Virus record (IMG/VR): IMGVR_UViG_3300005805_000002
Span: 10,190-74,189 of that record
Length of the DNA stretch: 64,000 bases
Reading direction: 5' to 3' (one strand)
Source: a virus
Taxonomy: Duplodnaviria; Caudoviricetes
How positions within the stretch are numbered: the first letter of the stretch is position 1; the number at the start of each line of letters is the position of its first letter. The notes below the pieces were generated by a model. It was not told the origin of the DNA and searched no databases. It saw only the letters and a program-made list of their open reading frames with translations. Both the position numbers and the translations under genes were made by a program. Shown here piece after piece: positions 25,124-39,585 of the stretch.

Positions 25124-25143
25124 CTAACCGGAATCTTGGTTAA
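25124..25143. repeat. 20-bp palindrome copy ctaaccggaatcttggttaa
   Basis: Embedded in a longer GC hairpin (gccccgc...gcggggc) after the VWA gene; may also act as a terminator. Confidence 0.75.
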
Positions 25144-25164
25144 GCGGGGCAAGGCGGGTTTGGT

Positions 25165-26811
25165 TCAGTTATGCACGGCTTCCATCTGAACGGCGTGGAA
25201 GTTAACGAACTTGCCGAAGGGCATACGGTAGTTGTCCCCTCCGTACAGATACCTTTGACAAGTATTGATCCAGAGCGTGGGGATACCGGGATCCGGCGTA
25301 CGCCACCAGCTCCACTGCATGTCGGAGACAACGACGATCCAGTCGTACTCGGACCTGCGGTTCTTGGCCCAGTTGAAGGCGGGCATGAGGTCGGTCGCAC
25401 CGCGTCCGGCCCAGCCTTGGAACTCGGTGATCGGGAAGTCACAGGACCTGTAGTCGCGTGACGCCCGAACGGAGGTGTCGCAATGCAGCAACGTGACGGT
25501 CGACTGCGGGAACAGCGACAGCACTTTGCCGAGATGCGTCAGGGCTTGGTTGCAGTCCGCGTCGCTCATCGAGCCGGACGTATCTACAATGAAGAGACCA
25601 CGGGTCTTGCTACGGGCGCGGCGAGCCGGAAGCAGCAGGTCCTTACGATGGCTGTGCCTGCGGGACGGCCTGTCGTATTTCCAGCCTGCGGCGTGTTGGG
25701 TCCGGAGAAACTTCTCCAGTTCCTTGCGCCAGTTGATCGACGCGGCCAACTCGGGGTCTCCCTCGATGCGCTCCTTGTACTGGGAGATGATATCACCCAG
25801 ACCAGTCGGGCTGTAGGTCGAGCTACCGAGCAGCGCTTCGAGGATGAGCTTGGCCTCGTCTTCGCGAAGCGTGACTTCTTCGGGCGCGTCTTCAATGCCG
25901 CCGCCGAAGGTCTCGGTCGGATCGGGCATGTTGGCGAAGGGGTCGTGCTCGGCGTTGGAGTCGGAGCCCGCCTTGGCGGGGTCGCCGCTCTCGGAGTCGG
26001 AGTCGGAGTCGTCAGCGTCCTCGAAGTCCGACCCGTCGAAGGGTTGGCTGTCGTTGCCTGAGCCAGAGGAATCCTCGTCGTCACCGTCCTCGTCCTTGTC
26101 GGATTCGCCGGAGCCAGAGGAGTCATCGTCTGAGTCATCGGAGTCGGAGTCGCCGACCTCGTTCTCGTCCCAGTCGTGGACGCCATCGTCATCCTCATCA
26201 TCGGAGGAGCCGGGCTTATCCTTGTTGGATCGAGTCTTGGTCACTTGGGTGCCTTCCTGACCTTCCTCGCCTTCCTCGCAGGGCTCGCCGTCGACAGGTA
26301 CCTCGTTGGTAGGAGGCTGAGGCGGCGGAGGCGGGTTGAGCTGCTTGAGCAGGTCGTAGTACTCCTCGGCGCTCTTGTTGTACGGGAGACCCTCGAAGGA
26401 TTTGAAGCCGACGAAGCAGCCGCCCGAGACTTTCGAGTCGATCAGCTCGGCTTGCAGTTTGACGGTGTCGCCTTGGAACGCCTCACGGTAGCCCTTGTAG
26501 AGCATACAGTTGAGCGCGAGATCGGCGGCGATGTTGTAACCCTTGGGGTTTCGTTTGCCACGGCGGTGCTGGTGATTGGACAGCACGTGACCGACCTCGT
26601 GCAGCACGATGGCCTTGGCGGCGGACAAGGACAGCTTGTCGACGAACGAGGGATTGTACGTGAGAGTCCGGCCGTTGGTCGCCATCGTGGACAAGGAGCC
26701 GGACGGCTTGACCGACCAGCGTGACAGCACGACTGGTATGGCTATGGGTTCGAGCCGAGCGACCCAGTCGAGTGCGACTTTGATCTTTTCAGCAGAGGTA
26801 AGTTGAGTCAT
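25165..26811 (-). CDS. DUF2201-like metallopeptidase-VWA protein with long acidic linker
   Basis: LHEVGHV (HExxH); IVDTSGSMS (MIDAS DxSxS); central D/S/E-rich tract. Confidence 0.85.
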   Translation of the reverse strand: MTQLTSAEKIKVALDWVARLEPIAIPVVLSRWSVKPSGSLSTMATNGRTLTYNPSFVDKLSLSAAKAIVLHEVGHVLSNHQHRRGKRNPKGYNIAADLALNCMLYKGYREAFQGDTVKLQAELIDSKVSGGCFVGFKSFEGLPYNKSAEEYYDLLKQLNPPPPPQPPTNEVPVDGEPCEEGEEGQEGTQVTKTRSNKDKPGSSDDEDDDGVHDWDENEVGDSDSDDSDDDSSGSGESDKDEDGDDEDSSGSGNDSQPFDGSDFEDADDSDSDSESGDPAKAGSDSNAEHDPFANMPDPTETFGGGIEDAPEEVTLREDEAKLILEALLGSSTYSPTGLGDIISQYKERIEGDPELAASINWRKELEKFLRTQHAAGWKYDRPSRRHSHRKDLLLPARRARSKTRGLFIVDTSGSMSDADCNQALTHLGKVLSLFPQSTVTLLHCDTSVRASRDYRSCDFPITEFQGWAGRGATDLMPAFNWAKNRRSEYDWIVVVSDMQWSWWRTPDPGIPTLWINTCQRYLYGGDNYRMPFGKFVNFHAVQMEAVHN

Positions 26812-26885
26812 GGTTGGATTGTTCTAACGTGGTAGTTGGGACGATGTGTCAGGGGGCCCCCGCAAGGAGGCCCCCTGATCTTTGG

Positions 26886-28013
26886 TTAGCCGACGATGGC
26901 CTTGTAGGCATCGAGGCCTGCGAGGCTGGGCAGCTTGGCCCCGGCCACGCGGAACCACCAAGCCACAGCCTCACGGCAGGCGGGGTTCTCGGTAGCGCAG
27001 CGGGCGAAGTAGTCAGCCACAGCCTTGGTGTGCGCCGGATTGACCTCGGGCGAGAGGTTGCGCTTGGCCTGCTCGGGGTCGAGCAAGCGGACAGCGAACG
27101 ACTCACCGAGTGCGTACAGGACGCCGATCTGGTCGGCCGGAGGAGTCGGCGCGGAGGCCGGATCCTTGACGACTTTCTCGAAGGTCGGGCACTGCGAGAG
27201 GACCTCGCGGTACGCGATGTATTCGCGGCCAGCGGTCTGACCGACCAAGCCGAAGACGATGGCGTCTCCGACCTCCGGTGTGAGCGGGGTCTGGGCCAGC
27301 ACGTCGAGAGCCGCCGCAGCCCACGTGAAGGTACGAGGGTTAGGACGTTGCTGCTCGATGTACTCGTGTTTGCCGCCGCCGAAGATGTTCGGGCGGAAGC
27401 GGGCATAGCCAACCAGAGCGGCATCAATGCCGTTGCCGTTAGCCCAGTCGATCCAGTGGTCCAAGGCGCGGGGGCCGTGGGTGTCCACGTAGAAGTGGGC
27501 CAGACGGGTAGCCGCCGCAGTGGTCAGCTCGGTCGTGCCCGTGTCGGTCGTGCCGTTGCCAGCGCAAACAATGTGCGTCAGCTTGGACAGCTTGCGGCCG
27601 TTGACGCCACGGTCGAGCAGGATCTGCAAGGCCACGTTGAGGACGTCGATGGACGTGCGGTCGACCTCGTCGAAGAACAGGATGCACTCATAGTCGTCTC
27701 CGTAGAGATCGGCCCACGGGAGCAACGAGTTGGCGAGGTAGGACAGGACCTTGCGGACCTCGCCATCGATCTCCTGATCCACGGGGTACGGGATGCCGCC
27801 GAGATCGGTGGGCTCCTTGTCCGACAGGCGGACGTCATGGAGCGGCAGGCCGAGATCGGCGGTGAGCGACTTGATCGTAGCGGACTTGGTCCAGCCGACC
27901 GGACCCCAGATTACGGGGACCAGATCGAGTGTGGGGACCCAGCACACGGCGATGCACTGCTTGATGGTGGACAGCGGAAAAGCCGCTGCGGGGACAGGTT
28001 TATGATTTTGCAT
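26886..28013 (-). CDS. MoxR-like AAA+ ATPase
   Basis: WGPVGWTKS (variant Walker A), LFFDEVDR (Walker B), CAGN sensor; adjacent to the VWA gene; start MQNHKP. Confidence 0.85.
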   Translation of the reverse strand: MQNHKPVPAAAFPLSTIKQCIAVCWVPTLDLVPVIWGPVGWTKSATIKSLTADLGLPLHDVRLSDKEPTDLGGIPYPVDQEIDGEVRKVLSYLANSLLPWADLYGDDYECILFFDEVDRTSIDVLNVALQILLDRGVNGRKLSKLTHIVCAGNGTTDTGTTELTTAAATRLAHFYVDTHGPRALDHWIDWANGNGIDAALVGYARFRPNIFGGGKHEYIEQQRPNPRTFTWAAAALDVLAQTPLTPEVGDAIVFGLVGQTAGREYIAYREVLSQCPTFEKVVKDPASAPTPPADQIGVLYALGESFAVRLLDPEQAKRNLSPEVNPAHTKAVADYFARCATENPACREAVAWWFRVAGAKLPSLAGLDAYKAIVG

Positions 28014-28059
28014 GGTGGTAGTTGTGTGGTTGTGGTGGTTGGGAAAAGGGGCCCTCCGG

Positions 28060-28079
28060 CTAACCGGAGATCGGGTTAA
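28060..28079. repeat. 20-bp palindrome copy ctaaccggagatcgggttaa
   Basis: Flanked by the extra stem gccctccgg/ccggagggc; followed on the minus strand by the A/C leader of the AAA gene. Confidence 0.8.
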
Positions 28080-28096
28080 CCGGAGGGCGGATCGGG

Positions 28097-28315
28097 CTAG
28101 AGCGTCGAGCCCTTGCTCGGGAAGCCGTTGACGTGATTGATGATCCACTGGCGGACCATCCCGTTGAGTTTGTCGAGCGTTTGGCGGGACACCCGAGTGA
28201 ACTTGTGGTGACGCGTCTTCTTGGCGTGGTCCAGCATGAAGGTGCGGACCTTGCTTTCGACGATGAGAGACGCGCTGATGCGCGCTACGACTTGATCGAG
28301 TTCGGATTCAGACAT
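28097..28315 (-). CDS. Hypothetical protein (72 aa)
   Basis: Preceded by the conserved leader. Confidence 0.65.
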   Translation of the reverse strand: MSESELDQVVARISASLIVESKVRTFMLDHAKKTRHHKFTRVSRQTLDKLNGMVRQWIINHVNGFPSKGSTL

Positions 28316-28344
28316 GGTGGTAGTTGTGTGGTTGTGGTTGTGGT

Positions 28345-29277
28345 TTAGGAGACCTGAGCTTTGACGGCTCCGGCCTTGAGCTTGGACAGGATGTCGCCAG
28401 CCTGCTTGGCAATCTCCGACCGGACCTCGGTGCCCTTGTCGGTCTTCTTGTCGCGGAGGACATTGGACTGAGCGGCTTTGACGAGTCCGGCGACGAGGTC
28501 GCGGGCACGGGTCACGGCAGCGGTGATGGTGCGGTCGTTGTTGACGTTGAGCGCAGGCAGGGCCTCGACCAGTTCTTCGAGGTTGGTGACCATCGTGTCC
28601 TCGAAGCGGGCGATCTTACCGGAGTTGAACTCGGTAAGACTGCTGACGACACGGGACAGCGCGGCCTCCAGCCTCTCGACGACAGTCTTGTGCAGGTCCT
28701 TGACCTTGTCCGCGTATTCCTTGCGGGTGCTGTCCTCGATGGCAGCGCGGGCCTTGGCCGACACGTGGTTGAGGCGGATGTCGTCGGGGTGCGTGATGGC
28801 GCTCTGCTTGATCTCGAACTTGTAGCGTTCACGCACCTCGTCCTCGGTCGGGAAACCGAGTCGGTCGAAGGCTCCGTTGAGATCGACCCGGGCTTGGTCG
28901 CGGAGTTTAGGGAGGCTCTTGCAGAGCTTGTCGACGGAGTCGTAGAACTCGGCGCGGAAGGCTTCGAGTTTCTGGACAACCGAGTCGAGCTTGGTGTTAA
29001 CGACTGCGAACGAACCCTTGCCGTCCCAGCGGAAGCCCGTGGGGAAGTCAAGGTAGCGGCGAGCCTCGGAGAGCTTCTGCTGCGGAGGCAGGCGGTCCTC
29101 CTTGGTCAGTCGCTGCACGTAGGCAGTGAAACGGTCGGAGGCAGCGTGATCGGCGCTGGCCGCGTTGGCGGCAGCTTGGTCGTCGCGTTTGCTCCACGGG
29201 AACAGCGAGCCCTCGATGCTGACGAGGGTGCAGTCACGGGCGATGTCGAATGCGTTGGTAGTTTTGTATTCAGTCAT
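28345..29277 (-). CDS. DUF3150-like protein
   Basis: Pattern LNGAFDRLGFPTEDEVRERYKF and position upstream of an AAA+/VWA pair match recalled DUF3150-type genes. Confidence 0.6.
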   Translation of the reverse strand: MTEYKTTNAFDIARDCTLVSIEGSLFPWSKRDDQAAANAASADHAASDRFTAYVQRLTKEDRLPPQQKLSEARRYLDFPTGFRWDGKGSFAVVNTKLDSVVQKLEAFRAEFYDSVDKLCKSLPKLRDQARVDLNGAFDRLGFPTEDEVRERYKFEIKQSAITHPDDIRLNHVSAKARAAIEDSTRKEYADKVKDLHKTVVERLEAALSRVVSSLTEFNSGKIARFEDTMVTNLEELVEALPALNVNNDRTITAAVTRARDLVAGLVKAAQSNVLRDKKTDKGTEVRSEIAKQAGDILSKLKAGAVKAQVS

Positions 29278-29327
29278 GGTGGTAGTTGGTTGTGTGGTTG
29301 ATGGCGAACGCCGACGTCGTCTTAAAC

Positions 29328-29414
29328 CTACCGATCAAAATATGAGCGGGAGATGAACAAGGCGACGAGCAGCGAGGCCAGAAGGTAGAGAACGAAGTGG
29401 GCTTCGGGAATCAT
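29328..29414 (-). CDS. 28-aa single-TM micropeptide
   Basis: MIPEAHFVLYLLASLLVALFISRSYFDR. Confidence 0.45.
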   Translation of the reverse strand: MIPEAHFVLYLLASLLVALFISRSYFDR

Positions 29415-29467
29415 GGCGGCAATATAGTTAGACAACTCTCGGAGCAATTCGTTCAAATTATTTTTCG

Positions 29468-29842
29468 TCAGTGTTTCCAAAGGGGCGGTTTGACGCGCAG
29501 CTTCACGGGGTAGCGGTGCTCTCCGGCACGCTCGGCGGGTCGGATGAAACAGAAGTCATACTTCTTTCCATTGTAGACATAGTTGAAGCCGCCGTGCTCG
29601 TCGTGTTCTACATTGACGCTGCCGTGGTTGTCGTGCTCGTTCGAGTAGAACTCCAAGACCGAGTACGGTCGCTGAGTCTTCTCATCCTTGTATCCGAGCG
29701 GTTCGACGTAGCCTGCGAAGAAGTAGACGCAGTCTTTGGTCGTGAGTTTGCTGGCGTTGCTCGCAGTCGGATCCACGTCGCAGTTGCGAAGGAAGACCAT
29801 GAGCTTGTCGTCGGGATGGGGTATGTTGGTTTTGTATTTCAT
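29468..29842 (-). CDS. Hypothetical protein
   Basis: MKYKTNIPHP...; packed in the operon. Confidence 0.6.
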   Translation of the reverse strand: MKYKTNIPHPDDKLMVFLRNCDVDPTASNASKLTTKDCVYFFAGYVEPLGYKDEKTQRPYSVLEFYSNEHDNHGSVNVEHDEHGGFNYVYNGKKYDFCFIRPAERAGEHRYPVKLRVKPPLWKH

Positions 29843-29844
29843 GG

Positions 29845-30135
29845 TTATTTCTCGGGCCAAGCCGAGTAGATGGGTTTCAATCCTTTGTCATCGAAGAAGC
29901 TGACTACGCGGCCTCGGTGAGTGAGGCGACTGGCGTGGGCTCCGACTGAACGGGGTCGCACTTCACAGGTAGGGTAGCCCCTATAAAATCCCGTGAACTT
30001 GCTTTCCAATAACACCTCGATGTTGTGCTCTTTGGCGCTACCGCAGCGGGACTTTATGTATCCCGTGCCGCTATGCTTTCCTTTCGGGTCGTCGAAGTAG
30101 ACGCGTTGCAGGACGAATGTGTCTGAGAATTTCAT
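29845..30135 (-). CDS. Hypothetical protein (96 aa)
   Basis: Packed ORF. Confidence 0.6.
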   Translation of the reverse strand: MKFSDTFVLQRVYFDDPKGKHSGTGYIKSRCGSAKEHNIEVLLESKFTGFYRGYPTCEVRPRSVGAHASRLTHRGRVVSFFDDKGLKPIYSAWPEK

Positions 30136-30473
30136 TAGTGTTTGATCAGATCGTGGAGCGCGTCATCGGCGCTAATGAGAGGGACATTTTCGAGTACGTA
30201 GGTGTCGTTGACTCTTATGCCCACGAGTAAGCCGTGGGAGCCGTCGAGACACTGGGCTACTGCTCGCATTCCGCAGAGCGTGTCCTCAGCGCCCGAAAGG
30301 CCCAGACCGGAACCGGAGTTGTAAACGGCGTTGGCTTTGGCGGCGTCTTCATAAGACGCGTAAACGTGCGGGTTCCATACCCAGAAGTTGACGTCTTCGA
30401 TCTCGATAGCTCGGTCGAAAGGCTTCTGGTCAGGTGGAACCGGATAGGGAATGTGAATGTGTTGTGAGTTCAT
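30135..30473 (-). CDS. Hypothetical protein (112 aa)
   Basis: Preceded by palindrome plus leader. Confidence 0.65.
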   Translation of the reverse strand: MNSQHIHIPYPVPPDQKPFDRAIEIEDVNFWVWNPHVYASYEDAAKANAVYNSGSGLGLSGAEDTLCGMRAVAQCLDGSHGLLVGIRVNDTYVLENVPLISADDALHDLIKH

Positions 30474-30506
30474 AATGGTAGTTGGTTGTGGTAGTTAACT
30501 TATGGG

Positions 30507-30526
30507 TTAACCGGATATCCGGTTAA
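30507..30526. repeat. Perfect 20-bp palindrome ttaaccggatatccggttaa
   Basis: Contains the TAA stop of the 196-aa ORF (30523-25). Confidence 0.9.
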
Positions 30527-31113
30527 GCAGAGGGGACTTCGCAATACTTCAACAAGAAGGGGAAAAACCATTCCTCGGCTACCCTTTCAAGTTCTCGAAA
30601 GGCTTGAAGAGTCTGGTCCTGCTCAAGCGGTTCTTCATTGTGAAACGTGACGTCAATCCCGTGTATCGGGCGCTCAAGCCACGTGCCCTCGTAGCGGTCA
30701 ACCATATTGGAACGAAGGTAAACGGTGCTCGCGTAGTCGCCCTTGGCATGTTCGGTGTAAATGACCAGTGTCTGCGAGGTGCTGAGGAGGAAATCGAACG
30801 AGTGGTCTTTTCGCCACTCGTTACTGACGCTCAGATGCTTTCTGCTCTCGGTAAGCCACGTCTCCAGAGTCATCCACGCGGGGCGTCGGAAGTGCGGGTC
30901 TTTTATGTGCAGAGCGTGGTAAACCTTTTCAGCTACATCAGGTTTTAAGCGGAGATGTCGAGTATCGAGGTAGAGCTTATACACCGGACCGAATGCGACT
31001 CGAACGCGGTAATCGCGAGCGCGTTGCATTTTGTCCTTCTGTCGCTGCTCTTCATCTTGTTGCTGTTTCGCGGAGACGAGGCGAGCAAGAGTGGGGTTAG
31101 TGGATTCTTTCAT
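30523..31113 (-). CDS. Hypothetical protein (196 aa)
   Basis: Bounded by leader upstream and palindrome at the stop. Confidence 0.7.
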   Translation of the reverse strand: MKESTNPTLARLVSAKQQQDEEQRQKDKMQRARDYRVRVAFGPVYKLYLDTRHLRLKPDVAEKVYHALHIKDPHFRRPAWMTLETWLTESRKHLSVSNEWRKDHSFDFLLSTSQTLVIYTEHAKGDYASTVYLRSNMVDRYEGTWLERPIHGIDVTFHNEEPLEQDQTLQAFRELERVAEEWFFPFLLKYCEVPSA

Positions 31114-31132
31114 AGTGGTAGTTGTGTGGTTG

Positions 31133-31152
31133 TTAACCGGATATCCGGTTAA
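31133..31152. repeat. Perfect 20-bp palindrome ttaaccggatatccggttaa
   Basis: Contains the TAA stop of the 71-aa ORF (31149-51). Confidence 0.9.
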
Positions 31153-31364
31153 AGTTCGTAGGAAGCGTCGAGGTTATCGACAAACTCCCGCATGGATGAG
31201 GTGAGATCTGCTTCGGAGATGGCAACGTGCATGGCACGTATACCTTCGCCGTCCGGTGTCTTGTATAAACAGACGACTCGGAAGTTGGTGAGCTGTAGAC
31301 CAAGGGCCAGCATTCTCATGCCGACCCAGTCACAGATGGCGGTGTAAGTGCGTTCGAGGATCAT
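31149..31364 (-). CDS. Hypothetical protein (71 aa)
   Basis: ATGA overlap with the upstream gene; stop inside the palindrome. Confidence 0.6.
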   Translation of the reverse strand: MILERTYTAICDWVGMRMLALGLQLTNFRVVCLYKTPDGEGIRAMHVAISEADLTSSMREFVDNLDASYEL

Positions 31365-31519
31365 TCTTCGTTTTCGGCGGGGTAGACGACGAGCTTGGCC
31401 TGATTGCCTTCGCCTATGGCGAAATCCAGTCCATACTCATACCAGTTGTAGTCTTGCACGATGATCTCCGACTCGGGGTCGTGCTTCTGTAAGTGATCGA
31501 TGAGTTCTTTAACTTTCAT
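31361..31519 (-). CDS. Small phage protein (52 aa)
   Basis: MKVKELIDHLQKHDPESEIIVQ, a common small-phage-protein start; below the ORF-track length cutoff. Confidence 0.6.
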   Translation of the reverse strand: MKVKELIDHLQKHDPESEIIVQDYNWYEYGLDFAIGEGNQAKLVVYPAENEE

Positions 31520-31521
31520 GG

Positions 31522-31767
31522 TCAGTTGATGGTTGCGTGGAAGTAGACGCCGCGTTCATCGTTCCGGTCTTGGAGTTGAATGCTCCGAGCTTTGCCGGAG
31601 ATGACGCAGCGGGGTTGCGACTTTCGGTCGCGGGTTGCGGTTGGGACGTTGCAGGACAGACTCTCGACAAAGAGGCAGGCCCCCTTGTAGTGAATCGACA
31701 GCACGTTGCGGCCCCACTTTTGTGATAGAGGCTTGTTGTAGTGGTAGAAGAATGTGAATGGTTTCAT
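31522..31767 (-). CDS. Hypothetical protein (81 aa)
   Basis: MKPFTFFYHYNKP...; packed ORF. Confidence 0.6.
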   Translation of the reverse strand: MKPFTFFYHYNKPLSQKWGRNVLSIHYKGACLFVESLSCNVPTATRDRKSQPRCVISGKARSIQLQDRNDERGVYFHATIN

Positions 31768-32102
31768 TGGTCTTCGAGTTTGGAATTGATGAGGGCGCGA
31801 ACGTCCGGTTCGATCTTGGCGAAAGCCAATCGCAGGCTTTTGGGCACTTGATCGGGTGCTGGTCCGTCGTCGAAGGTGTCAATGCGGTTGCGGGAATACC
31901 GGATGCATCCTTCCTCGAAGGGACCAACGAACGGTGAGCGGCGGGCATCTTCGCGATAAACGCGGAGCAAATACTCCTCGTCGGTCGGCATGACCGCGTA
32001 TATGTCGCAGTCAATGTAACCGTCGCAGTTGATGATGGCCCAGTCGAAGCGGATGCCAGTGCCCGGATCGGTGAATGTTGTTCTGTTTTTCATTGCGGTC
32101 AT
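31764..32102 (-). CDS. Hypothetical protein (112 aa)
   Basis: ATGA overlaps at both ends. Confidence 0.6.
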   Translation of the reverse strand: MTAMKNRTTFTDPGTGIRFDWAIINCDGYIDCDIYAVMPTDEEYLLRVYREDARRSPFVGPFEEGCIRYSRNRIDTFDDGPAPDQVPKSLRLAFAKIEPDVRALINSKLEDQ

Positions 32103-32335
32103 AGGGCTCCTCTTTCTCCTCCGGTCGGCGGGTTGATGAGTCCGGCTTCGATCATGCGGACAGCCGTGCGTCCGTAGAATCCCTGCAACGTCCATGCCAT
32201 TCCCGTATCTACGAGGTATTGGAATAGGCGGAGGGTCCCTTCGGTGCTGAGGCTGCCTTGCTCGAAGTCGATGAGTTCGGTGGTGAGATCGAATGATTCG
32301 GTGGTGTTCACGGGTGGTAAGGAATCGATGTGCAT
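32099..32335 (-). CDS. Conserved small phage protein (FQYLVDTGMAWTLQGFYGRTA)
   Basis: Motif recalled from many phages (DUF7417-like). Confidence 0.7.
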   Translation of the reverse strand: MHIDSLPPVNTTESFDLTTELIDFEQGSLSTEGTLRLFQYLVDTGMAWTLQGFYGRTAVRMIEAGLINPPTGGERGAL

Positions 32336-32341
32336 GGTGTG

Positions 32342-32818
32342 TTAAGCGAGTGCGCGTTGCAGGCCAGCGTGCAGGACGCCGCCATACCACGCGGGGTTCT
32401 TTTCTTTGAGGATGGTGAGGGGAGCTTTACCCGCGTCTAACTCGGCGAAGTATTGCTCCGGTGTGTGACTGGCGATCAGCTCTTTGCGGAACTTCGCCAG
32501 CGTGAAAGGTCCCCCGTGTTTGAAACGGGCGACGAACTTGCGGTCGGGTCCGAAGAGCAGGTATTGCCCCTCTCGGAACAGTTGATCTTTGGTGAACTTG
32601 GTCATGGTAGTTGGTGGTTTGGTGACGTAGAGAAGCGGGGGATACTCGTTCCGCTTCTCCAACTTGGTGGTCAGATGAGTGCCCCTGCAATGGGGGCAGG
32701 AGTAGACTCCGTATTGCTTGTTGCGCTTCCGGCGGAAGCGTTCCGCGTGTTCTTCGTAATCGGACCAGCCAAGATTGATTTTGCCTCGGCATCCTCGTTC
32801 CAAGCTGGGTGGTTTCAT
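32342..32818 (-). CDS. Two-part ORF: YxCPxCxGxHLT domain fused in frame to a second ORF starting at 32605
   Basis: Internal leader ccaccaactaccATG at 32605 (translated KPPTTM). Confidence 0.6.
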   Translation of the reverse strand: MKPPSLERGCRGKINLGWSDYEEHAERFRRKRNKQYGVYSCPHCRGTHLTTKLEKRNEYPPLLYVTKPPTTMTKFTKDQLFREGQYLLFGPDRKFVARFKHGGPFTLAKFRKELIASHTPEQYFAELDAGKAPLTILKEKNPAWYGGVLHAGLQRALA

Positions 32819-32825
32819 GGATGCC

Positions 32826-32845
32826 TTAACCGAGATTCGGGTTAG
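32826..32845. repeat. 20-bp palindrome variant ttaaccgagattcgggttag
   Basis: Contains the stop of the 60-aa ORF at the distal TAA. Confidence 0.7.
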
Positions 32846-33008
32846 GCTCGGCGAGCTTGATGGCCGCGCGGAGTTCCTTGATGGTAATCCACGCGGGGTG
32901 TTCGCGGTCTCCGCTCGGCTCGAACTCGGGCATGATACCTTCGAGATCGGCGAGCGCGCATTTGGCAGCGTCGAGCAGCATTTTGAATGATCGAGTGTGT
33001 TTTTTCAT
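32826..33008 (-). CDS. Hypothetical protein (60 aa)
   Basis: MKKHTRSFKMLLDAAKCAL... Confidence 0.55.
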   Translation of the reverse strand: MKKHTRSFKMLLDAAKCALADLEGIMPEFEPSGDREHPAWITIKELRAAIKLAEPNPNLG

Positions 33009-33355
33009 TGGGTGATGGTTGAGGTTTCGTAAGGGACGCAGTCGTTATCCAAGCCGAACTTGGACAGCATCTCGTCCGAGCAGTATCCGTTGTCATTGGG
33101 CGCGCAGTTGGGATGCCCGTAAATGCAGGAGCAGGGATGCTCGGCGACCATTTGCAGGTAACGCTTTGCGTATGCCTGTCGCTTGCGGTCGCAGATCTCG
33201 ACGAGATCCTTCTGGGTAATACGGGTCCCGCATACTGCGGTGTAATCGATGAGCTGGTCGGGGAAGACCGGACTCGTGACACGCTTGCCGTCGAAGAGGA
33301 CTTCAAACTCCTCTCCGGCGATGTTGAGGATGATGGGTATGGGATCGATGGTCAT
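33005..33355 (-). CDS. Hypothetical protein with Cys/His cluster
   Basis: HPCSCIYGHPNC...YC; start MTIDPIP. Confidence 0.55.
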   Translation of the reverse strand: MTIDPIPIILNIAGEEFEVLFDGKRVTSPVFPDQLIDYTAVCGTRITQKDLVEICDRKRQAYAKRYLQMVAEHPCSCIYGHPNCAPNDNGYCSDEMLSKFGLDNDCVPYETSTITQ

Positions 33356-33357
33356 GG

Positions 33358-33927
33358 TTAATTCCTTCCGGACATTTGCTTCCACACACCGAGATCGAAC
33401 TCGGCGAACGTGAGATGGGGGAACTTGGTCCGCACCATGCGCTTCGCCTTCTCCTCGATCTTGAGGTAGGTCGGCGACAGCTTATTCGGCGTGGTCGCAG
33501 GGATGCCCCTCATGCGGCACTCCTCGCGGAGATAGCGCAGCATATGGACGTCGAGGACCACGAGTTCCTCGTCCGGTCGGCTATGCAGCAGGAACATCCG
33601 CGCGGTCTTGTGCCCAATCCCGTGGATGGACAGCAGGTCGTGCAAGGTGCAAGTGCGGAGGTTCAAGTTAAGAACCCCGGCCACAGCGGGAGCGTTCTTG
33701 TTGTAAGGTGCGAGATGCCACTCTTCGAGAATCTCGGCAATGCTCATGCCGTGATACGGAGAGCGGAACGCATCGAACAGCGATCCGTTGGTGCGGGCGA
33801 TGAGTCGATTGACCAGTCGCGCAGTGGAGTCGGAGTTGTGTCCGGCCACGGCGATGCAGAAGAGCATGAACTCTTCCAGTTCCTCGTCGCTGCGGTGGTA
33901 GTTGGTGACTTGTGTGGGTTCGATCAT
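33358..33927 (-). CDS. HhH-GPD superfamily DNA glycosylase/lyase (OGG2/EndoIII-like)
   Basis: LLSIHGIGHKTARMFL helix-hairpin-helix with Lys; VVLDVHM with the Asp. Confidence 0.75.
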   Translation of the reverse strand: MIEPTQVTNYHRSDEELEEFMLFCIAVAGHNSDSTARLVNRLIARTNGSLFDAFRSPYHGMSIAEILEEWHLAPYNKNAPAVAGVLNLNLRTCTLHDLLSIHGIGHKTARMFLLHSRPDEELVVLDVHMLRYLREECRMRGIPATTPNKLSPTYLKIEEKAKRMVRTKFPHLTFAEFDLGVWKQMSGRN

Positions 33928-33945
33928 GGGTGGTGTGGTAGTTGG

Positions 33946-33965
33946 TTAACCGGAATTCCGGTTAA
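33946..33965. repeat. Perfect 20-bp palindrome ttaaccggaattccggttaa
   Basis: Contains the stop (33962-64) of the upstream ORF. Confidence 0.9.
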
Positions 33966-34471
33966 GCAGCCTCCCGCCAGTCGTGGGGTCGGCTGTAGAA
34001 TCCGAACGAGGGATCGTCCTCGCTCGGGGTGAAGGTGGCGGTGAAGGTGACACGCTTGCCGTCCTCGGTGGCCGCGCGGGAGGGTTTGGATCCCCAGACC
34101 TTGGCCCCGTCCGGCAATTGGATGAGGCACTTGATCGAGTCGCCGAACTTGGTCGCAACGAGCTTCTGCTTGAGGATCACGCCCGTGACCTCGGTCCGGC
34201 CGAGCGGGGCGCGGATGCCAGCGGCAACCCGTTTGGCCCGTTCCTCGGCGCGCTCGTCGGCCCACTTCATTTTCTGAAGCGACTCCTTGTGGAGTTTGAT
34301 AGCGAAGGCTGCCTGTTTTGGAGTCAACGACTTATACCGGACGAGCTTGACGGCCATGTCCTGTAGGATGTTGACGCCCCATGAGATGCGGTCCCACGCG
34401 GGGTGCGACTGCAATGACGAGTCCGCGCCAAAGTGGAGCGCGGCATTCAACTCGGAGTTATTGGTATCCAT
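33962..34471 (-). CDS. Conserved phage protein with OB-fold-like C-terminus
   Basis: GRTEVTGVILKQK...KVWGS...VTFTATF...DDPSFGFYSRP. Confidence 0.6.
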   Translation of the reverse strand: MDTNNSELNAALHFGADSSLQSHPAWDRISWGVNILQDMAVKLVRYKSLTPKQAAFAIKLHKESLQKMKWADERAEERAKRVAAGIRAPLGRTEVTGVILKQKLVATKFGDSIKCLIQLPDGAKVWGSKPSRAATEDGKRVTFTATFTPSEDDPSFGFYSRPHDWREAA

Positions 34472-34518
34472 AGTGGTAGTTGGTGGTGGTGGTGAAAAAG
34501 CCTCTATCACGTTTCCGG

Positions 34519-34608
34519 TCAGTCGGTTACGAGGCAGATGGCGATCCCGAGCAGGGTGAGTCCGCAGAAGATTTCCAGTGCGGTCTGGAGAATGTCGTAG
34601 GGTATCAT
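34519..34608 (-). CDS. 29-aa single-TM micropeptide
   Basis: MIPYDILQTALEIFCGLTLLGIAICLVTD; GGTTTAAGA motif about 25 nt upstream. Confidence 0.45.
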   Translation of the reverse strand: MIPYDILQTALEIFCGLTLLGIAICLVTD

Positions 34609-34718
34609 ACTGATGCGAGTATATGTAGACGTCTTAAACCTTGGGTTGTTCAATCTTGGGTGCTTGGAATCCTCGGCCCCCGAACGGATGGGACGTAGCG
34701 GGAACGAGGTGATGGGAC

Positions 34719-34907
34719 CTAACGGATGGACTGCGGGTCGTCGGTCTTGCGGATCTCGACTTTCGTCGTGGGATCCCAGTTCGCCTTGACGCGAAGCCAA
34801 AGCTCCGCCTCGGACGAGGCCGACTCATGCGTCCGGTGGTTCGTTGAGGAGACGCGGCGTTTGTCGCGCGTCACCACGTAGACGAACTCCTTTTCGTAGT
34901 TGGGCAT
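34719..34907 (-). CDS. Hypothetical protein (62 aa)
   Basis: Preceded by palindrome plus leader. Confidence 0.65.
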   Translation of the reverse strand: MPNYEKEFVYVVTRDKRRVSSTNHRTHESASSEAELWLRVKANWDPTTKVEIRKTDDPQSIR

Positions 34908-34939
34908 GGTGGTAGTTGGTCGGGTTGTTGCGGTGGTGG

Positions 34940-34959
34940 TTAACCGGAAATCGGGTTAG
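34940..34959. repeat. 20-bp palindrome variant ttaaccggaaatcgggttag
   Basis: Contains the stop of the 56-aa ORF 34940-35110. Confidence 0.85.
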
Positions 34960-35110
34960 CGGAGAGCTTCACGTTGTGAAACTCCTCGAACAGGCGTTGA
35001 TACTCCTTGGCCTTCTCGTCGGTATTGATCGGGCCGAGAGCGATGATTGCGTTCAAGTATTGCCGGAAGCTCGGGTCGTCGTAGCTGGGTGGTGCAGGAT
35101 TGTAAGGCAT
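34940..35110 (-). CDS. Hypothetical protein (56 aa)
   Basis: MPYNPAPPSYDDPSFRQYLNAIIALG...; judged more plausible than the track's 34956-35144 frame. Confidence 0.55.
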   Translation of the reverse strand: MPYNPAPPSYDDPSFRQYLNAIIALGPINTDEKAKEYQRLFEEFHNVKLSANPISG

Positions 35111-35160
35111 AAGAAAGGGGCGGGGCTTTTTCGGCTAACCCCAAGCCGCGTTGCGGTTGG

Positions 35161-35361
35161 TTAGATGAAGTCGTCGTGCGAGACTTCAGCGGAGGGACGC
35201 CATTCGTTGAAACGATTGCGGTAGGCGTTGAACGCGTCGAAGCACTGGTCGAGGGCCTTGGGATCGTAGGCCGTGAGAAACTTGCGTATCTCCGGCGACA
35301 GGACGATGACCGAGACGGCCTTGTTCAGTTGTTCGAGCAGCAGTTGTGTTGCGTTTTCCAT
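35161..35361 (-). CDS. Hypothetical protein (66 aa)
   Basis: Preceded by palindrome plus leader. Confidence 0.65.
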   Translation of the reverse strand: MENATQLLLEQLNKAVSVIVLSPEIRKFLTAYDPKALDQCFDAFNAYRNRFNEWRPSAEVSHDDFI

Positions 35362-35386
35362 GCGGTAGTTGGTGTTGTTGTGTTGG

Positions 35387-35406
35387 TTAACCGGAGATCC
35401 GGTTAG
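35387..35406. repeat. 20-bp palindrome ttaaccggagatccggttag
   Basis: Lies just downstream of the tRNA-like RNA. Confidence 0.9.
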
Positions 35407-35458
35407 GAAAGGGGCATCCCTTGTAGGCGTGTAATGACGCCTCGTTAGTTGTCAGAGC

Positions 35459-35616
35459 AGACGGCGAGGGGAATCGAACCCCCATCTCCCATAACTCCAT
35501 CTCGCGGTGATCAGCCGAGAGTCATCGTCTGTCTGCGACCGAGATCACGCGTAATCCAGTGCAGGTCGGCGATGAATTCATGGAGGGGCGTGTTACCAGT
35601 TGAACACTACGCCGCC
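35459..35616 (-). ncRNA. tRNA-like RNA with a ~80-nt structured insert replacing the anticodon loop
   Basis: Acceptor GGCGGCG/CGCCGTC, T8A9, D-arm GTGT-TCAACTGGTA-ACAC, T-arm GGGGG-TTCGATT-CCCCT, discriminator T, no encoded CCA. Confidence 0.75.
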
Positions 35617-35769
35617 ATCGTTGATCGATTTCCCTCTGACCTCTGGGATGAGTGGGGCTTTGTTGCCTGACCCCAAGGCAGGGACCGCTAACGCGTGATC
35701 CCTATTACGGACAATCTGGTGACCCCGATTGACAGGGGGCCATTCGGAATTCGCGAATGGCGAAAGTGG

Positions 35770-36195
35770 TTAGCCCCAGCAGAGCCCGCCGAAGTCGTCG
35801 GGCGAGAATCCGGCGGGGAGTTCGACTCCCTGCAACAAGAGGATGTTCCGGCAGAAGTCAATATCGTCGCAGGACGCGCAGTAGATGTCGTCCCCATCGA
35901 CCATGTCGGGGTGCTTCTTGAGCAAATCCCAGACAGGTCCGCGCAGCTTGCCCCAGCCGAAGGTGAGGAACGAGTCGAGGGAAGCGAGAGCCTCGACGCG
36001 GTGGACCTCCTTGTAGAGCCGATACGAGAGCCGCTCGCAGCGGAGGAAGGCGGACTCGTCGGTCGGAAGTTGACTGGCGAGGTTGGAGTAACGGCCTTGA
36101 AGTGCCGTCAGCCGGGCGTAAGTGCCGGGATGGACTTGAGCCAGACGCTCAAGGATTTCGGGGTTGGTGGTTTTCGGATACAGGCGTGTTCCCAT
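35770..36195 (-). CDS. Conserved phage hypothetical protein (141 aa)
   Basis: MGTRLYPKT...FLTFGWGKL; preceded by palindrome plus leader. Confidence 0.7.
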   Translation of the reverse strand: MGTRLYPKTTNPEILERLAQVHPGTYARLTALQGRYSNLASQLPTDESAFLRCERLSYRLYKEVHRVEALASLDSFLTFGWGKLRGPVWDLLKKHPDMVDGDDIYCASCDDIDFCRNILLLQGVELPAGFSPDDFGGLCWG

Positions 36196-36220
36196 AGGTG
36201 TTGGTGTGGTTGTGGTTAGA

Positions 36221-36240
36221 TTAACCGGAGATCCGGTTAA
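36221..36240. repeat. 20-bp palindrome ttaaccggagatccggttaa
   Basis: Contains the stop (36237-39) of a 33-aa peptide. Confidence 0.9.
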
Positions 36241-36338
36241 CGGAGAGCGAGGAGAAGGCAGGGAGCGACTCCGACAATTGCGGCCAAGATATACAGGGCC
36301 AAAAGCCAGAGGGGCTCGCGTTGGTTTTGATTTTTCAT
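36237..36338 (-). CDS. 33-aa single-TM micropeptide
   Basis: MKNQNQREPLWLLALYILAAIVGVAPCLLLALR; stop inside the palindrome. Confidence 0.5.
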   Translation of the reverse strand: MKNQNQREPLWLLALYILAAIVGVAPCLLLALR

Positions 36339-36407
36339 GGAGTTGGGGGAGGTGTAAGCCTCGCTTCTACTCCCCGTCACGGGCACGGGGAGCAGGTGCG
36401 ATTCCAA

Positions 36408-36494
36408 TCACCAGTCGAGCAGGCTACGAATGAATCCGTAGATCAGCAGGAATGATCCGATCAGAGTCATGGAGACCAAGATGTCTGGACTCAT
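36408..36494 (-). CDS. 28-aa single-TM micropeptide
   Basis: MSPDILVSMTLIGSFLLIYGFIRSLLDW. Confidence 0.45.
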   Translation of the reverse strand: MSPDILVSMTLIGSFLLIYGFIRSLLDW

Positions 36495-36501
36495 GGCTGC
36501 C

Positions 36502-36642
36502 TTACTCGTTGAAGTCGTCGGCCGAGATCGGGGCCTCGACCCAGACCCAGTGCAGCGGGCTATGGTCGTCCTCGGTGAAGGACGGGGCCACGTTGACACG
36601 GGCGGGGACTTGATCGACGGGTTGGTTGTAGTTGTCTTCCAT
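36502..36642 (-). CDS. 46-aa acidic peptide
   Basis: MEDNYNQPVDQVP...; preceded by palindrome plus full leader. Confidence 0.55.
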   Translation of the reverse strand: MEDNYNQPVDQVPARVNVAPSFTEDDHSPLHWVWVEAPISADDFNE

Positions 36643-36678
36643 AGTGGTAGTTGGATGGTTGTTATGGTTGTGGTTGTG

Positions 36679-36698
36679 TTAACCGGAGATCCGGTTAA
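36679..36698. repeat. 20-bp palindrome ttaaccggagatccggttaa
   Basis: Followed on the minus strand by the leader. Confidence 0.9.
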
Positions 36699-36763
36699 CG
36701 AGAGCGGAGTCACTCCAACACCTGCACCAGTGGTTGGCAGTCCCACTGGTGAGGTGCTGACGC

Positions 36764-36780
36764 GAACCCGTTCCGGTTAG
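36764..36780. repeat. Palindrome half-site gaacccgttccggttag
   Basis: Holds the stop (36777-79) of the 155-aa ORF. Confidence 0.5.
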
Positions 36781-37244
36781 GACTGGGCCTTGGCCTGCTT
36801 GGTCAGCCAAGCGCGGCGGAGAGCAGAGACCGCGTCCTCGCCAGCCTCGGCCTCGGCGAGAGCGATGAGCTTCTCGATGACGGGGGCGAGCTTTGCGTCC
36901 TTCTCTTTCTTGCTCTTGCTCTCGGACTTCTGGGCACGTTCGCGGAGGCCCAGAGCAACGAACGCATCGGAGGCACGGCGTTCGGACTCGGCCTTGGCCT
37001 GCTTCTCGGTCTTGCCGTCAGCGAGGTAGGCCTCGACCAGCGCGGCTTTGACTTGCGCCTTGAGGTCCTTGATTGCGGCTTTGCGGTCCGCGCCAGAGGC
37101 GGCGATCTCGCTGGAGATGCGCGCCTTGATTGCGTCTTTCAACGCGGCGAGGTTGGAGTTCGCCACGGCGAACGTGACGATGTCGGTGATGACGTCCTCG
37201 GTGAAGGAGAGGACGCTGCGGAGGTTGGCAATGATGTTGCTCAT
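36777..37244 (-). CDS. Ala/Lys-rich helical protein (155 aa), first gene of the early run
   Basis: MSNIIANLRS...; strongly G/C-ending codons. Confidence 0.7.
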   Translation of the reverse strand: MSNIIANLRSVLSFTEDVITDIVTFAVANSNLAALKDAIKARISSEIAASGADRKAAIKDLKAQVKAALVEAYLADGKTEKQAKAESERRASDAFVALGLRERAQKSESKSKKEKDAKLAPVIEKLIALAEAEAGEDAVSALRRAWLTKQAKAQS

Positions 37245-37279
37245 AGTGGTAGTTGTGGTTAGTCGCTGGATCACGATGC

Positions 37280-37299
37280 TTAACCGGAAACTCGGTTAG
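37280..37299. repeat. 20-bp palindrome variant ttaaccggaaactcggttag
   Basis: Lies between the candidate ncRNA and the first early gene. Confidence 0.85.
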
Positions 37300-38190
37300 C
37301 CACGGGTCGGTCGTCGTCAGCACTCGGAGACCAATCCGAATGGACAGGGGAGATGAATCCGCAATGGGTAGTTCACGATCCCCTGTTTCGACCTTTATTC
37401 AGCAGTCAGCGCACGTTCAGCAGAGGAAGCGATTGGCGAGTGGGATGCGGACAAGTGGAGCCGCAAAGTTATAAGTGCCGTTCGTATCTGCTCGTCCCGA
37501 TTCGGTGTTCTACCGACATACCTCGAAAGGCATGACCGCAAACCAATGCGGTGGCAGGCTTGACTACCTGCTGCTCCGTTACCGGACCGAGCGCACGCCC
37601 CGTTTGAGGCGTTGCTGGTCTATGGTCGGAGAGGACTGCAACTGACTTCAGTCTTGCGCCCGTTTGTAATCACGGGCATCCGTTCGCGCTACGTTTCCTC
37701 ACGCTACAAGGCAATCCACAAGGGGACGAACCCCTTGGCCGGAACTGGTCTGCACCAGTGTCGCGTCCGGTCTGCCAACCCCGCCCTTACGCACCTCTAC
37801 TCGGGGACTCCAAAGCCTAACTCCCATCCCGCTGGAGACGATCCAGCGCGGCGAGAGGTCAGCAAACCCCTTTCGGGCCTCGATCAGTGTTGGCCTGATT
37901 TCGCGTCTGCTCGCGCACCTTGAGGGGTCTCGTCTCCCGTCCACGATCCTCGCCGCGCGGCCCTTCATCAGTAGCCCCTATGCGGTTCAACGGATCATCC
38001 AACTGGTGGACTTCGTTTCGATACCTCCCCTCGCCTTGCGGTCGAGTCTGAATGTCAAAGAACTGAAGGCTGCCTCGATCCCTTCTGCTGTCGGTCGGGA
38101 GTCGATCCCGTCTCGCGCTTCTGGTCTCTCGGTCTGCTACCTATTGGGGACCTCGGAGGAATTAGGTTGCCAACAGAGTAAGAAAGGGTA
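37300..38190 (-). ncRNA. Candidate large structured ncRNA (~890 nt)
   Basis: No convincing ORF; more than ten hairpins plus long-range helices; GNRA/UUCG tetraloops when read on the minus strand. Strand is tentative. Confidence 0.55.
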
Positions 38191-38196
38191 TGTTGG

Positions 38197-38216
38197 CTAA
38201 CCGGAACACTGGTTTA
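38197..38216. repeat. 20-bp palindrome variant ctaaccggaacactggttta
   Basis: Ends 4 nt before the ATG of the HTH gene. Confidence 0.7.
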
Positions 38217-38220
38217 CTGG

Positions 38221-38745
38221 ATGCCTGCCTCGCACGATCCCAAGCTGAAAGAAGAAGCTCGCCGCCTCATGGAGGAGGAAGGCTTTACTCTGACCGAGAC
38301 CGCTCGGCGGGTAGGAGTGTCGAAGGCAGTGATCAGTGACTGGGCGACAGCAGGTGAATGGAGGAGGACAGAAGTCGTTCGACAGGTTAGGATACAGGAA
38401 CAGAAACTGGTAACTGATCCGGTGTTAGATGCTGCGATCAAGCGACTTACGACAATGCCGAGAGGTCAACGGGAAGCGGAGTATGATGAGGCAATGCACC
38501 TTTGGGCTACCTCGATCCCGATTCTGTTGAAGCAAATCCCTCACAATGAATTAGTTACAAAGGCCGACAAGGTTGCAAAGCTCATCGAGGTATCGAGGAA
38601 AGTGCTTGGAAAAGAGGAAGGCAAATCGAAACCTGCCATGCTATCTGTCGGAATCCTGTCGTCGTCTCCCATCCCCAGCAGGATTCCCCAGCCGCTGGAA
38701 ATCCTTGATGCACAGGTGGATACGCTAACCGAAGATGCGGTTTAG
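38221..38745 (+). CDS. N-terminal HTH DNA-binding protein (small terminase-like or regulator)
   Basis: ARRLMEEEGFTLTETARRVGVSKAVISDWATAGEW; isolated plus-strand gene. Confidence 0.65.
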   Translation: MPASHDPKLKEEARRLMEEEGFTLTETARRVGVSKAVISDWATAGEWRRTEVVRQVRIQEQKLVTDPVLDAAIKRLTTMPRGQREAEYDEAMHLWATSIPILLKQIPHNELVTKADKVAKLIEVSRKVLGKEEGKSKPAMLSVGILSSSPIPSRIPQPLEILDAQVDTLTEDAV

Positions 38746-38889
38746 GTAGCGGGTTGCCTACCTGCTACCGGAAAAAGGATTCTTTTTCTGGCGGACACTG
38801 ACGGCAGGGGTCTCCCCCCGGACCCTGTTCCGCAACCCACTACATTATATGTACGAAGGTTATAAAAAAGTGCCCGTTTTTCTAACAGG

Positions 38890-39335
38890 GCCCTCTCTGT
38901 AGCCTCTCTGTAGCCGGGTTCATCGACACGTCGCGAGAACATGTCGACGTTCGACCACTTTATCGACATGTCGCCGAACGACCACACCCGCCGGAGGGCT
39001 TCGCCACGAACGGGTGGCCGTTAGGGGGAAACTCAGGGGGAAAGGGGGAAACTGTTTTTGGTAGTTTCCCCCCATCCAAAACCGCTCCGTTTACTCTGTT
39101 ATTTTAGGGGGTAGGGGGGAAAGGGGGGAAACTATTTCTCTATTTCTACGGGAAGATGAAAATAAATAGATACGATGTAAAAAAAACCCGTATTATGTAT
39201 TTTAGGTAGACTTTTCAAAACATCTCCCCCTTTCCCCCCTTTCCCCCCAGTTGGACGCCAAGCCGTTCGTAAGCAGGTGCTTACGCCGAAAAATTTCGGA
39301 AAAATCCTTCCCCCCGCCGAAAAGTTTCCCCCGGT
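38890..39335. repeat. AT-rich region with direct repeats and opposed G5-6/C5-6 tracts (candidate origin or packaging region)
   Basis: ctctctgtagc x2; tcgaca/gtcg repeats; (ggggg aaa)n at 39024-48 and 39107-28 versus (ccccc ttt)n at 39225-48; palindrome gtaagcaggtgcttac. Confidence 0.55.
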
Positions 39336-39366
39336 TAGTGGTAACCAAGTACTAAGGAACCCCTAA

Positions 39367-39585
39367 TTAGTGGATCCTAAGACCCCGGTCATTGAGGATC
39401 TCCCAAAGCCGATCCCACACCCGCTCGAAGGTCCTGTACTCCTCAATCGTATTCTCCCCGTGCTTGATCTGCGACCGGAGGTAGTTCTGGAGGTCGTCCA
39501 TTGCGAACTTCCAGTCCGAGCCCTTGAGGGCGTCGAGATGGGCGTCTTCGTCTTCGGGTAGCTCGAACTCAAGGGTCGCTTTCAT
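39367..39585 (-). CDS. Conserved small phage protein (72 aa)
   Basis: MKATLEFELPEDEDAH...DLQNYLRSQIKH. Confidence 0.7.
   Translation of the reverse strand: MKATLEFELPEDEDAHLDALKGSDWKFAMDDLQNYLRSQIKHGENTIEEYRTFERVWDRLWEILNDRGLRIH

Follow-up and report, generated by a model that had tools for sequence, protein, structure and literature searches.

Neither hammerhead ribozymes in phage operons nor large, ornate RNAs of phages are new. To our knowledge, the biological role of phage self-cleaving ribozymes has remained largely unexplained since 2011, and we know of very few RNAs longer than 500 nt in bacteria and phages besides rRNA, introns, GOLLD, ROOL and OLE, each of which is structurally remarkable. 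The P4 CI RNA and the P1 c4 RNA, regulatory RNAs of temperate phages that are about 80 nt long, are made by the host RNase P and base-pair with repeated targets. Orphan structured RNAs near genes that are associated with twister and hammerhead ribozymes, the RAGATH motifs, were reportedly described by Weinberg et al. in 2015 and 2017. Ornate RNAs of the GOLLD and ROOL kind have been visualized by cryo-EM as homo-oligomeric assemblies consisting of RNA only (PMC12286853). The type II hammerheads of phage and prophage operons, finally, lie between transcription units, cut at C17, and possess a pseudoknot between loop I and the tail, which is the hallmark of natural type II hammerheads and is required for fast cleavage (Perreault et al. 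2011, PMC3088659). What is new at the locus presented here is an uncatalogued RNA body family that is paired with an interchangeable ribozyme and heads an early operon, a combination not described in the literature that we searched.

The window, that is, the whole stretch of 64,000 nucleotides that was analysed, corresponds to bases 10190-74189 of a virus record of 74,189 bp with terminal repeats. The sequencing runs containing this stretch in full are lake-water DNA metagenomes, with no RNA run among those listed. The plus strand carries the structural and packaging genes, including those for a 4081-aa protein and the large terminase. Two gene blocks run leftward: a replication block from 53836 to 39605, which encodes a family A DNA polymerase, a primase-helicase and an SNF2 helicase, and a block of small genes from 37274 to 21410, which extends over 16 kb on the same strand. 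Between these two blocks are found, in order, the gap at 37300-38190, a gene for an HTH DNA-binding protein on the plus strand, and an iteron-rich, gene-free stretch (38750-39570). The initial annotation had proposed that the gap encodes a giant non-coding RNA, belonging to a known class or to a new one, at the head of the early transcript. The RNA described below runs in the same direction as the early genes.

Several further features of this part of the genome were observed. The second gene-free stretch, located directly after the HTH gene, contains G5-A3-G5-type repeats in both orientations and inverted pairs of up to 22 nt around an A+T-rich centre, and may serve as an origin of replication or as a site of packaging. 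A weak tyrosine-recombinase (integrase) match was obtained for 52622-53836, at the far end of the replication block, and raises the possibility of a temperate phage. A duplicate of the start region of the first early gene occurs 600 bp downstream (36567-36582 is the same as 37193-37208, and 36640-36653 the same as 37242-37255), where it precedes a 46-codon ORF (36502-36642) that looks like a truncated paralogue of that gene.

The gap is bracketed by two palindromes, in agreement with the initial annotation (Table 1). Both are members of a family whose ~15 copies are confined to 24430-38743 (16 matches versus 2.05 expected). These palindromes of 18-20 bp punctuate the minus-strand early block, and each is followed by a G-poor leader without a Shine-Dalgarno sequence. 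As they lack a U-tract, they are not classic terminators. In the relatives assigned below to clades B and C, a variant palindrome occurs in which both half-sites have changed together (A-C-C to T-C-C); this is compatible with a hairpin and equally with a site that binds a dimeric protein, for example the neighbouring HTH protein. A search for a promoter of the RNA returned no convincing sigma-70, sigma-54 or ECF-like match, and the 5' end was not identified.

A blastn search of the region against 50,697 phage records gave no match, and nothing was found by scanning IMG/VR with protein patterns of the HTH protein and the primase-helicase, by scanning IMG/VR with DNA patterns for relatives of the region, or in a first metagenome pattern scan. 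Both flanking proteins have relatives in freshwater metagenomes, and the succession of HTH gene, a gap of 590-1000 nt and a homologue of the first early gene is kept in all of the relatives' loci examined, this homologue coming after the RNA in every relative. Eight distinct sequences possess the RNA body: five form clade A (the window, L054, L002, L003 and L005) and three form clade B (L008, L012 and L007). L054 is 92% identical to the window, while L002, L003 and L005 are ~72-78% identical to it and to each other. More distant relatives (L014, L015, L017, L020 and L023) constitute clade C, and the gap of L011 is also a clade C leader. L054 is a contig of 2803 bp (JBMUAP010000520.1) that was binned in a Blastocatellia (Acidobacteriota) MAG, which is either a weak host hint or a case of a mis-binned phage contig.

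Table 1. Positions of the features of the locus in the window, and of the twister ribozymes in clade C loci (numbered as in each locus).
Feature	Position	Strand	Remarks
First early gene	36777..37244	-	155 aa, no known family; G-poor leader without Shine-Dalgarno sequence
Downstream palindrome	37281..37298		Between hammerhead and leader of first early gene
Type II hammerhead ribozyme (RF02276)	37302..37393	-	Permissive Rfam scan, full-length match
Hammerhead stem II	37390-37393 with 37309-37312	-	4 bp, open, formed by the two ends
Hammerhead GAA	37387-37389	-	
Hammerhead stem III	37379-37386 with 37344-37351	-	8 bp plus long variable insertion
Hammerhead A15.1-U16.1 pair	37386/37344	-	
Hammerhead C17	37343	-	Predicted cut 37343/37342
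Hammerhead stem I hairpin	37321-37342	-	8 bp, 6-nt loop
Hammerhead CUGACGA	37314-37320	-	Followed by one extra nucleotide at 37313
Pseudoknot of loop I and tail	37329-37332 with 37305-37308	-	GGUC/GACC
Putative large structured ncRNA, ~800-850 nt	37343..38190	-	Covariation, hairpins, non-coding tests, MFE z
Hairpin with conserved loop UAGUCAA	37554..37571	-	Covarying stem
Hairpin Pe	37657..37678	-	Invariant 8-nt loop GAUUACAA, covarying stem
Core helix Pa, CCGGA/UCCGG	37738..37770	-	Encloses hairpin Pb (37744-37759, loop UGCAGA)
Invariant block UUUGGAGUC	37806..37814	-	May form a pseudoknot with the GAUUACAA loop
Hairpin with conserved loop AUCGUCU	37830..37848	-	Covarying stem; clade A only
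Conserved single-stranded block UUUGACA	38053..38059	-	5' domain; clades A and B, partly clade C
Upstream degenerate palindrome copy	38198..38215		Just before the RNA (minus) and just before the HTH gene ATG (plus)
Divergent HTH DNA-binding protein gene	38221..38745	+	Regulator-like or small-terminase-like; flanks the RNA on its other side, conserved
Twister-P1, L014	1485-1554	- of locus	
Twister-P1, L015	1606-1675	- of locus	
Twister-P1, L017	1195-1264	- of locus	
Twister-P1, L020	702-770	- of locus	
Twister-P1, L023	147-215	- of locus	

The 3' end of the RNA carries a type II hammerhead, which the initial annotation had missed and which gives both the strand and one end of the RNA. The window hammerhead scores 30.7 bits, with E-values of 0.0005 for a 1-kb search and 0.031 for the 64-kb search, where the Rfam gathering score is 37. 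A hammerhead occupies the same spot in every clade A and B relative, ~60 nt ahead of the first early ATG; that of L002 reaches 38.5 bits, above the gathering score, and the others 24.5-34.8 bits. The core (CUGANGA, GAA, the A-U pair and H17) is kept in all eight sequences, H17 being a C except for a U in L003, and the topology conforms as well, with stems I and III closed by loops and stem II open. Directly after stem II follows the tail strand of the loop I pseudoknot, a contact that the Rfam covariance model does not score and that reads GGUC/GACC in clade A and GGC/GCC in clade B. Compensatory changes were observed in 6 of the 21 hammerhead pairs. Between A9 and stem II there is an extra nucleotide of variable identity (C, U, A or none), which deviates from the type II core. 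The predicted cut is positioned 98 nt before the first early ATG. As far as sequence comparison can establish it, a complete hammerhead with its pseudoknot is conserved on the minus strand, while self-cleavage is inferred. Over its 92 nt, it agrees in all defining features, namely the core, C17 cut site, pseudoknot and position between transcription units, with the type II hammerheads of phage and prophage operons (PMC3088659), but differs from these in the extra nucleotide, the long stem III insertion and a score in the window that is under the gathering score. Furthermore, the unit upstream of it is an 800-nt structured RNA rather than a gene.

A helix that the initial annotation had drawn between 37321-37342 and 37431-37442 is better read as stem I of this self-folding hammerhead. 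On the RNA strand, the 12-nt segment at 37431-37442 is complementary to 37321-37336 (loop I and the 3' strand of stem I), and this complementarity is partly kept in L003 and L005. Since the pairing would compete with stem I and the pseudoknot, it might form an 'off' conformer. Two other candidates were rejected: a second hammerhead at ~37970-38020, suggested by a CGAAAC...CUGAUGA string, is not conserved in the relatives, and a trans-cleaving hammerhead seems improbable, as after a type II cut neither fragment would retain a whole core.

The absence of a credible ORF from 37300-38190, also part of the initial annotation, was borne out. The ORFs of this region are short and scattered over both strands, the longest comprising 103 aa on the plus strand and 89 aa on the minus strand, and a Pfam search with the ORFs of the region produced no match. 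An unrecognised or decayed protein-coding gene might still be suspected, since automatic gene calling yielded ORFs of 90-173 aa within the gaps of some relatives (151 aa in L005; 173 aa in L008, on the strand opposite to that of the L005 ORF; and 90 aa in L004). These ORFs, however, sit on differing strands and in differing frames, and they are broken in sister sequences. Every frame contains stop codons, with 5-18 per frame in the six full-length clade A and B sequences and 2-6 in the partial L007. Furthermore, 99 of 114 pairwise indels are not multiples of three, and the substitutions are without 3-nt codon periodicity. No conserved ORF, which if translated would have refuted the proposal of a non-coding RNA, was found in the gap. 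These comparisons, which are comparisons of sequences only, show the region to be non-coding, and we attach next to no credence to a coding gene.

The hairpin-rich character of the stretch, likewise pointed out beforehand, is reflected in its folding energy. On the minus strand the region is more stable than its dinucleotide shuffles (z = -2.78, with 0/20 as good), as opposed to z = -0.42 on the plus strand. This asymmetry between minus and plus recurs in two of three relatives (-4.0 versus -0.2 in L008, and -1.6 versus -0.15 in L012), the values for L002 being -4.5 and -4.4. The minus-strand tetraloop hairpins listed in the initial annotation are present (UUCG at 37517-37534, GUAA at ~37580, GAAA at ~37872 and GCAA at ~38037), and GNRA/UNCG tetraloops number four on the minus strand versus none on the plus strand. 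The 10-nt long-range complement (~37847/~37949) is present as well. Wobble counts (9 versus 5) are indecisive as to strand. The slight preference for the minus strand that had been expressed at the outset is hence supported by the hammerhead and, more weakly, by the MFE asymmetry and the tetraloops.

The relatives allowed covariation to be checked, and the stems covary above both shuffled and slid controls. For clade A, an RNAalifold model of four sequences comprises 229 pairs, of which 63 have changed on both sides, with 92.6% of cells paired; the shuffled controls gave 26.9 ± 3.7 (0/500), and sliding by 1-3 columns gave 9-13. For the core, a hand-curated model of seven sequences of clades A and B, in which the candidate pseudoknot is included, comprises 29 pairs with 92.5% of cells paired and 11 pairs changed on both sides, compared to 5.2 ± 1.4 in the shuffled controls (0/500) and 2-4 after sliding. 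It should be kept in mind that the clade A pairs were counted on the very alignment from which their structure had been inferred. The substitutions of L054 touch 24 of the scored RNAalifold pairs, of which 13 are kept (four by double changes) and 11 are broken. Two of the four double changes are located in the UGCAGA hairpin, and the broken pairs belong mostly to long-range or weak helices. Since the RNAalifold model is thus only partly right, we claim the well-supported helices and a multi-domain architecture, and not a finished fold.

The core helix Pa and its enclosed hairpin Pb have stems that covary in all sequences, and it is here that L054 adds two of its double changes. The flanking proteins of the relatives are only ~52-62% identical to those of the window, yet several loops and single-stranded blocks of the RNA are invariant. 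Across seven sequences, the UGCAGA, GAUUACAA and UAGUCAA hairpins present invariant loops on differing stems. The candidate pseudoknot between the UUUGGAGUC block and the GAUUACAA loop would consist of 7 pairs, one of which shows a compensatory change from A-U to U-A. A second pseudoknot of this loop-strand kind is proposed between 38053-38059 and the loop of the hairpin at 37554-37571. The 3' end of the RNA is predicted at the hammerhead C17; the 5' end is unmapped, and the covarying helices begin by ~38137. The combined evidence supports the view that 37300-38190 specifies a conserved, folded, minus-strand non-coding RNA of ~800 nt, of an uncatalogued family and of unknown function. What stands of the giant RNA proposed by the initial annotation is therefore a structured minus-strand RNA at the head of the leftward early block, although its transcription itself has not been shown.

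The same hairpins could be incidental to an element that operates at the DNA level, such as a set of protein sites, promoters, an origin or a packaging site. The location of the region between divergent genes, beside that of an HTH DNA-binding protein and 560 bp from the iteron-rich stretch, would suit such an element, as would the overlap of the block at 38160-38195 with a sigma-70-like promoter match for the HTH gene and the fact that the two strands of the alignment fold with equal significance. DNA-binding sites do not, however, require compensatory stems with fixed loops, and neither the contiguous and conserved strand-specific ribozyme with its pseudoknot nor the strand-asymmetric stability of the single sequences is in keeping with them. 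We regard a DNA-level element as very improbable.

Rfam presumably contains GOLLD, ROOL, OLE, HEARO, RNase P, tmRNA, group I and II introns and the RAGATH motifs. The Rfam search that the initial annotation had recommended returned nothing at the gathering score for the whole window, and at E ≤ 0.5 only the hammerhead. The RNA body had no Rfam match at E ≤ 10 (1 kb, permissive filters), E ≤ 5 (2.7 kb) or E ≤ 1 (15 related loci), and in the same searches the covariance models of GOLLD (RF01998) and ROOL (RF03087) matched neither the window nor its relatives. The RNA resembles GOLLD and ROOL in being hundreds of nt long, with many helices, phage-borne, from a lake source, with tRNA genes near some relatives and without a known function. 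No tRNA or tmRNA was found in the window (using ARAGORN for tRNA); tRNA genes are present in the early regions of L002 (3138-3209) and L003 (1892-1963 and 6069-6139). In contrast to GOLLD and ROOL, this RNA has a 3' end defined by a ribozyme and a fixed position at the head of an early operon, besides lacking a match to their models. One could argue, on the basis of the similar size, the lake-water phage and the tRNA genes nearby in L002 and L003, that it is a very divergent GOLLD or ROOL beyond the reach of the Rfam models; given that even the permissive searches yielded no match, we give this hardly any weight. Accordingly, from among the classes considered in the initial annotation it is the new family that remains, and not GOLLD or ROOL.

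As with the RAGATH motifs, we are dealing with a structured RNA of unknown function that is found in phage-like DNA and adjoins apparently interchangeable hammerhead and twister ribozymes, but it has no RAGATH match in Rfam and is several times larger. As with the P4 CI and P1 c4 RNAs, an RNA would be cut from the untranslated leader of an operon beside a phage control region. In contrast to these, an inspection by eye found no conserved complementarity of the RNA loops to the early-gene leaders or palindromes. The UAGUCAA hairpin was considered as an antisense to the ACUACC leader and rejected, as the 6-nt match is lost in L008 and L007.

Clade C phages retain the locus, with a gap of 700-1000 nt that is devoid of genes and has stops in all frames, and lack the hammerhead and most of the RNA body. 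In five of their loci a twister-P1 ribozyme (RF03160) was detected on the same strand, with full-length matches of 45-58.5 bits (E = 4.5e-7 to 6.2e-11), all under the gathering score of 67.2. The twister is located directly before the first early gene in L014 and L015, and one gene later in L017, L020 and L023. Each immediately follows a palindrome and precedes the leader of the early gene that comes next. The presence of two unrelated self-cleaving folds at one genomic address argues that selection maintains the cut itself. The gaps of L011, L014, L015 and L017 contain two to three copies of a ~21-nt hairpin module (stem CUUG/CAAG), and the clade C leaders share with the window RNA only some 5' blocks, namely CAAUAG, UUUGACA and the GGUAUCGAAAC block. 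These leaders thus appear to evolve by module exchange and, as clade C swaps most of the body while keeping the locus, the exact fold may not be essential.

A metagenome pattern scan identified 29 loci with similar type II hammerheads, none of which possesses the RNA body. Most of these hammerheads are squeezed in between two ORFs, with 0-30 nt separating them from the preceding one and ~35 nt from the following one. A few are preceded by 560 to >1200 nt devoid of any ORF on the same strand, and may represent further cases of an RNA plus a ribozyme. Unrelated metagenomic contigs with hammerheads of the same core include L027, L042 and L046, as well as L031, with three hammerheads at distances of 450-600 nt, and L035/L053, with two that are 913 nt apart. 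Because most similar hammerheads are tightly intercistronic, the window ribozyme is in itself an unremarkable cutter of phage operons; what is out of the ordinary is the large folded RNA that forms the unit upstream of it.

These data bear on whether the RNA acts after or before its release. The RNA might be a cis-acting, structured 5' leader that is active only while attached or during transcription, for instance by shielding the start of the operon from Rho or RNases, by modifying RNA polymerase like the HK022 put RNA, or by sensing a signal. The ribozyme would then merely uncouple the leader, and the 5'-OH hairpin end left on the early mRNA would be the real point of the cut. That the RNA exactly heads a 16-kb block of same-strand genes fits such a leader, as do the intercistronic position of most such hammerheads, which precede an ORF by ~35 nt, and the swapping of the body between clades while its position is kept. 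In L017, L020 and L023, where the twister comes after the first gene, leader and gene would remain joined. The invariance of loops and blocks between clades whose flanking proteins share only ~52-57% identity speaks instead for specific contacts and not for a generic shield, and intergenic palindromes without U-tracts provide no obvious terminators to be read through. A leader acting in cis is, in our estimation, a possibility that cannot be set aside, if on the whole an unlikely one.

We incline, with limited confidence, towards the interpretation that 38190 to 37343 is a non-coding RNA of a new family that is freed by its ribozyme and persists in free, stable form, either to act on a protein or to self-assemble. 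Leftward early transcription would start near 38190-38260, with the early genes co-transcribed (both of these being inferences), and the first 800-850 nt would form an untranslated first 'cistron' that folds into a compact multi-domain RNA. The hammerhead would then cut the transcript between 37343 and 37342, self-cleavage in vivo being inferred. This would free an RNA of ~800-850 nt with a 2',3'-cyclic phosphate at a 3' end that is flush against stem III, and the early mRNA would begin with a 5'-OH that is capped by the hairpin of stem I. In bacterial RNA decay, 5'-OH and 2',3'-cyclic phosphate ends should slow exonucleases and the 5'-end-dependent RNase E, and both cut products are inferred to be stable. 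The freed RNA, kept compact by long-range contacts between loops and strands, would be stable early in infection and is inferred to act in trans. Its likeliest mode would be the binding of a host or phage protein, or self-assembly, as in other ornate phage RNAs. It is the invariant loops, maintained across deep divergence, which suggest specific contacts and hence favour a stable free RNA. The evidence is limited in that only eight distinct sequences carry the body and no RNA data are available. Moreover, as most similar hammerheads are plain intercistronic cutters, it may be the mRNA, and not the RNA, that the ribozyme serves.

The locus offers practical handles for further work, namely a defined strand, a 3' end predicted to one nucleotide, and a fixed genomic address. 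The replacement of the hammerhead by a twister furthermore gives phage ribozymes a testable job, that of separating a structured RNA from the early messages. More tentatively, and as a proposal of which we are far from convinced, the RNA may represent a new class of giant ornate RNA of ~800 nt, characterised by invariant loops and long-range pseudoknots, that is freed as a particle by a plug-in 3' module, either hammerhead or twister. If this were true, ribozyme-ended early RNAs would constitute a widespread and unrecognised layer of early phage functions, such as host takeover or counter-defence.
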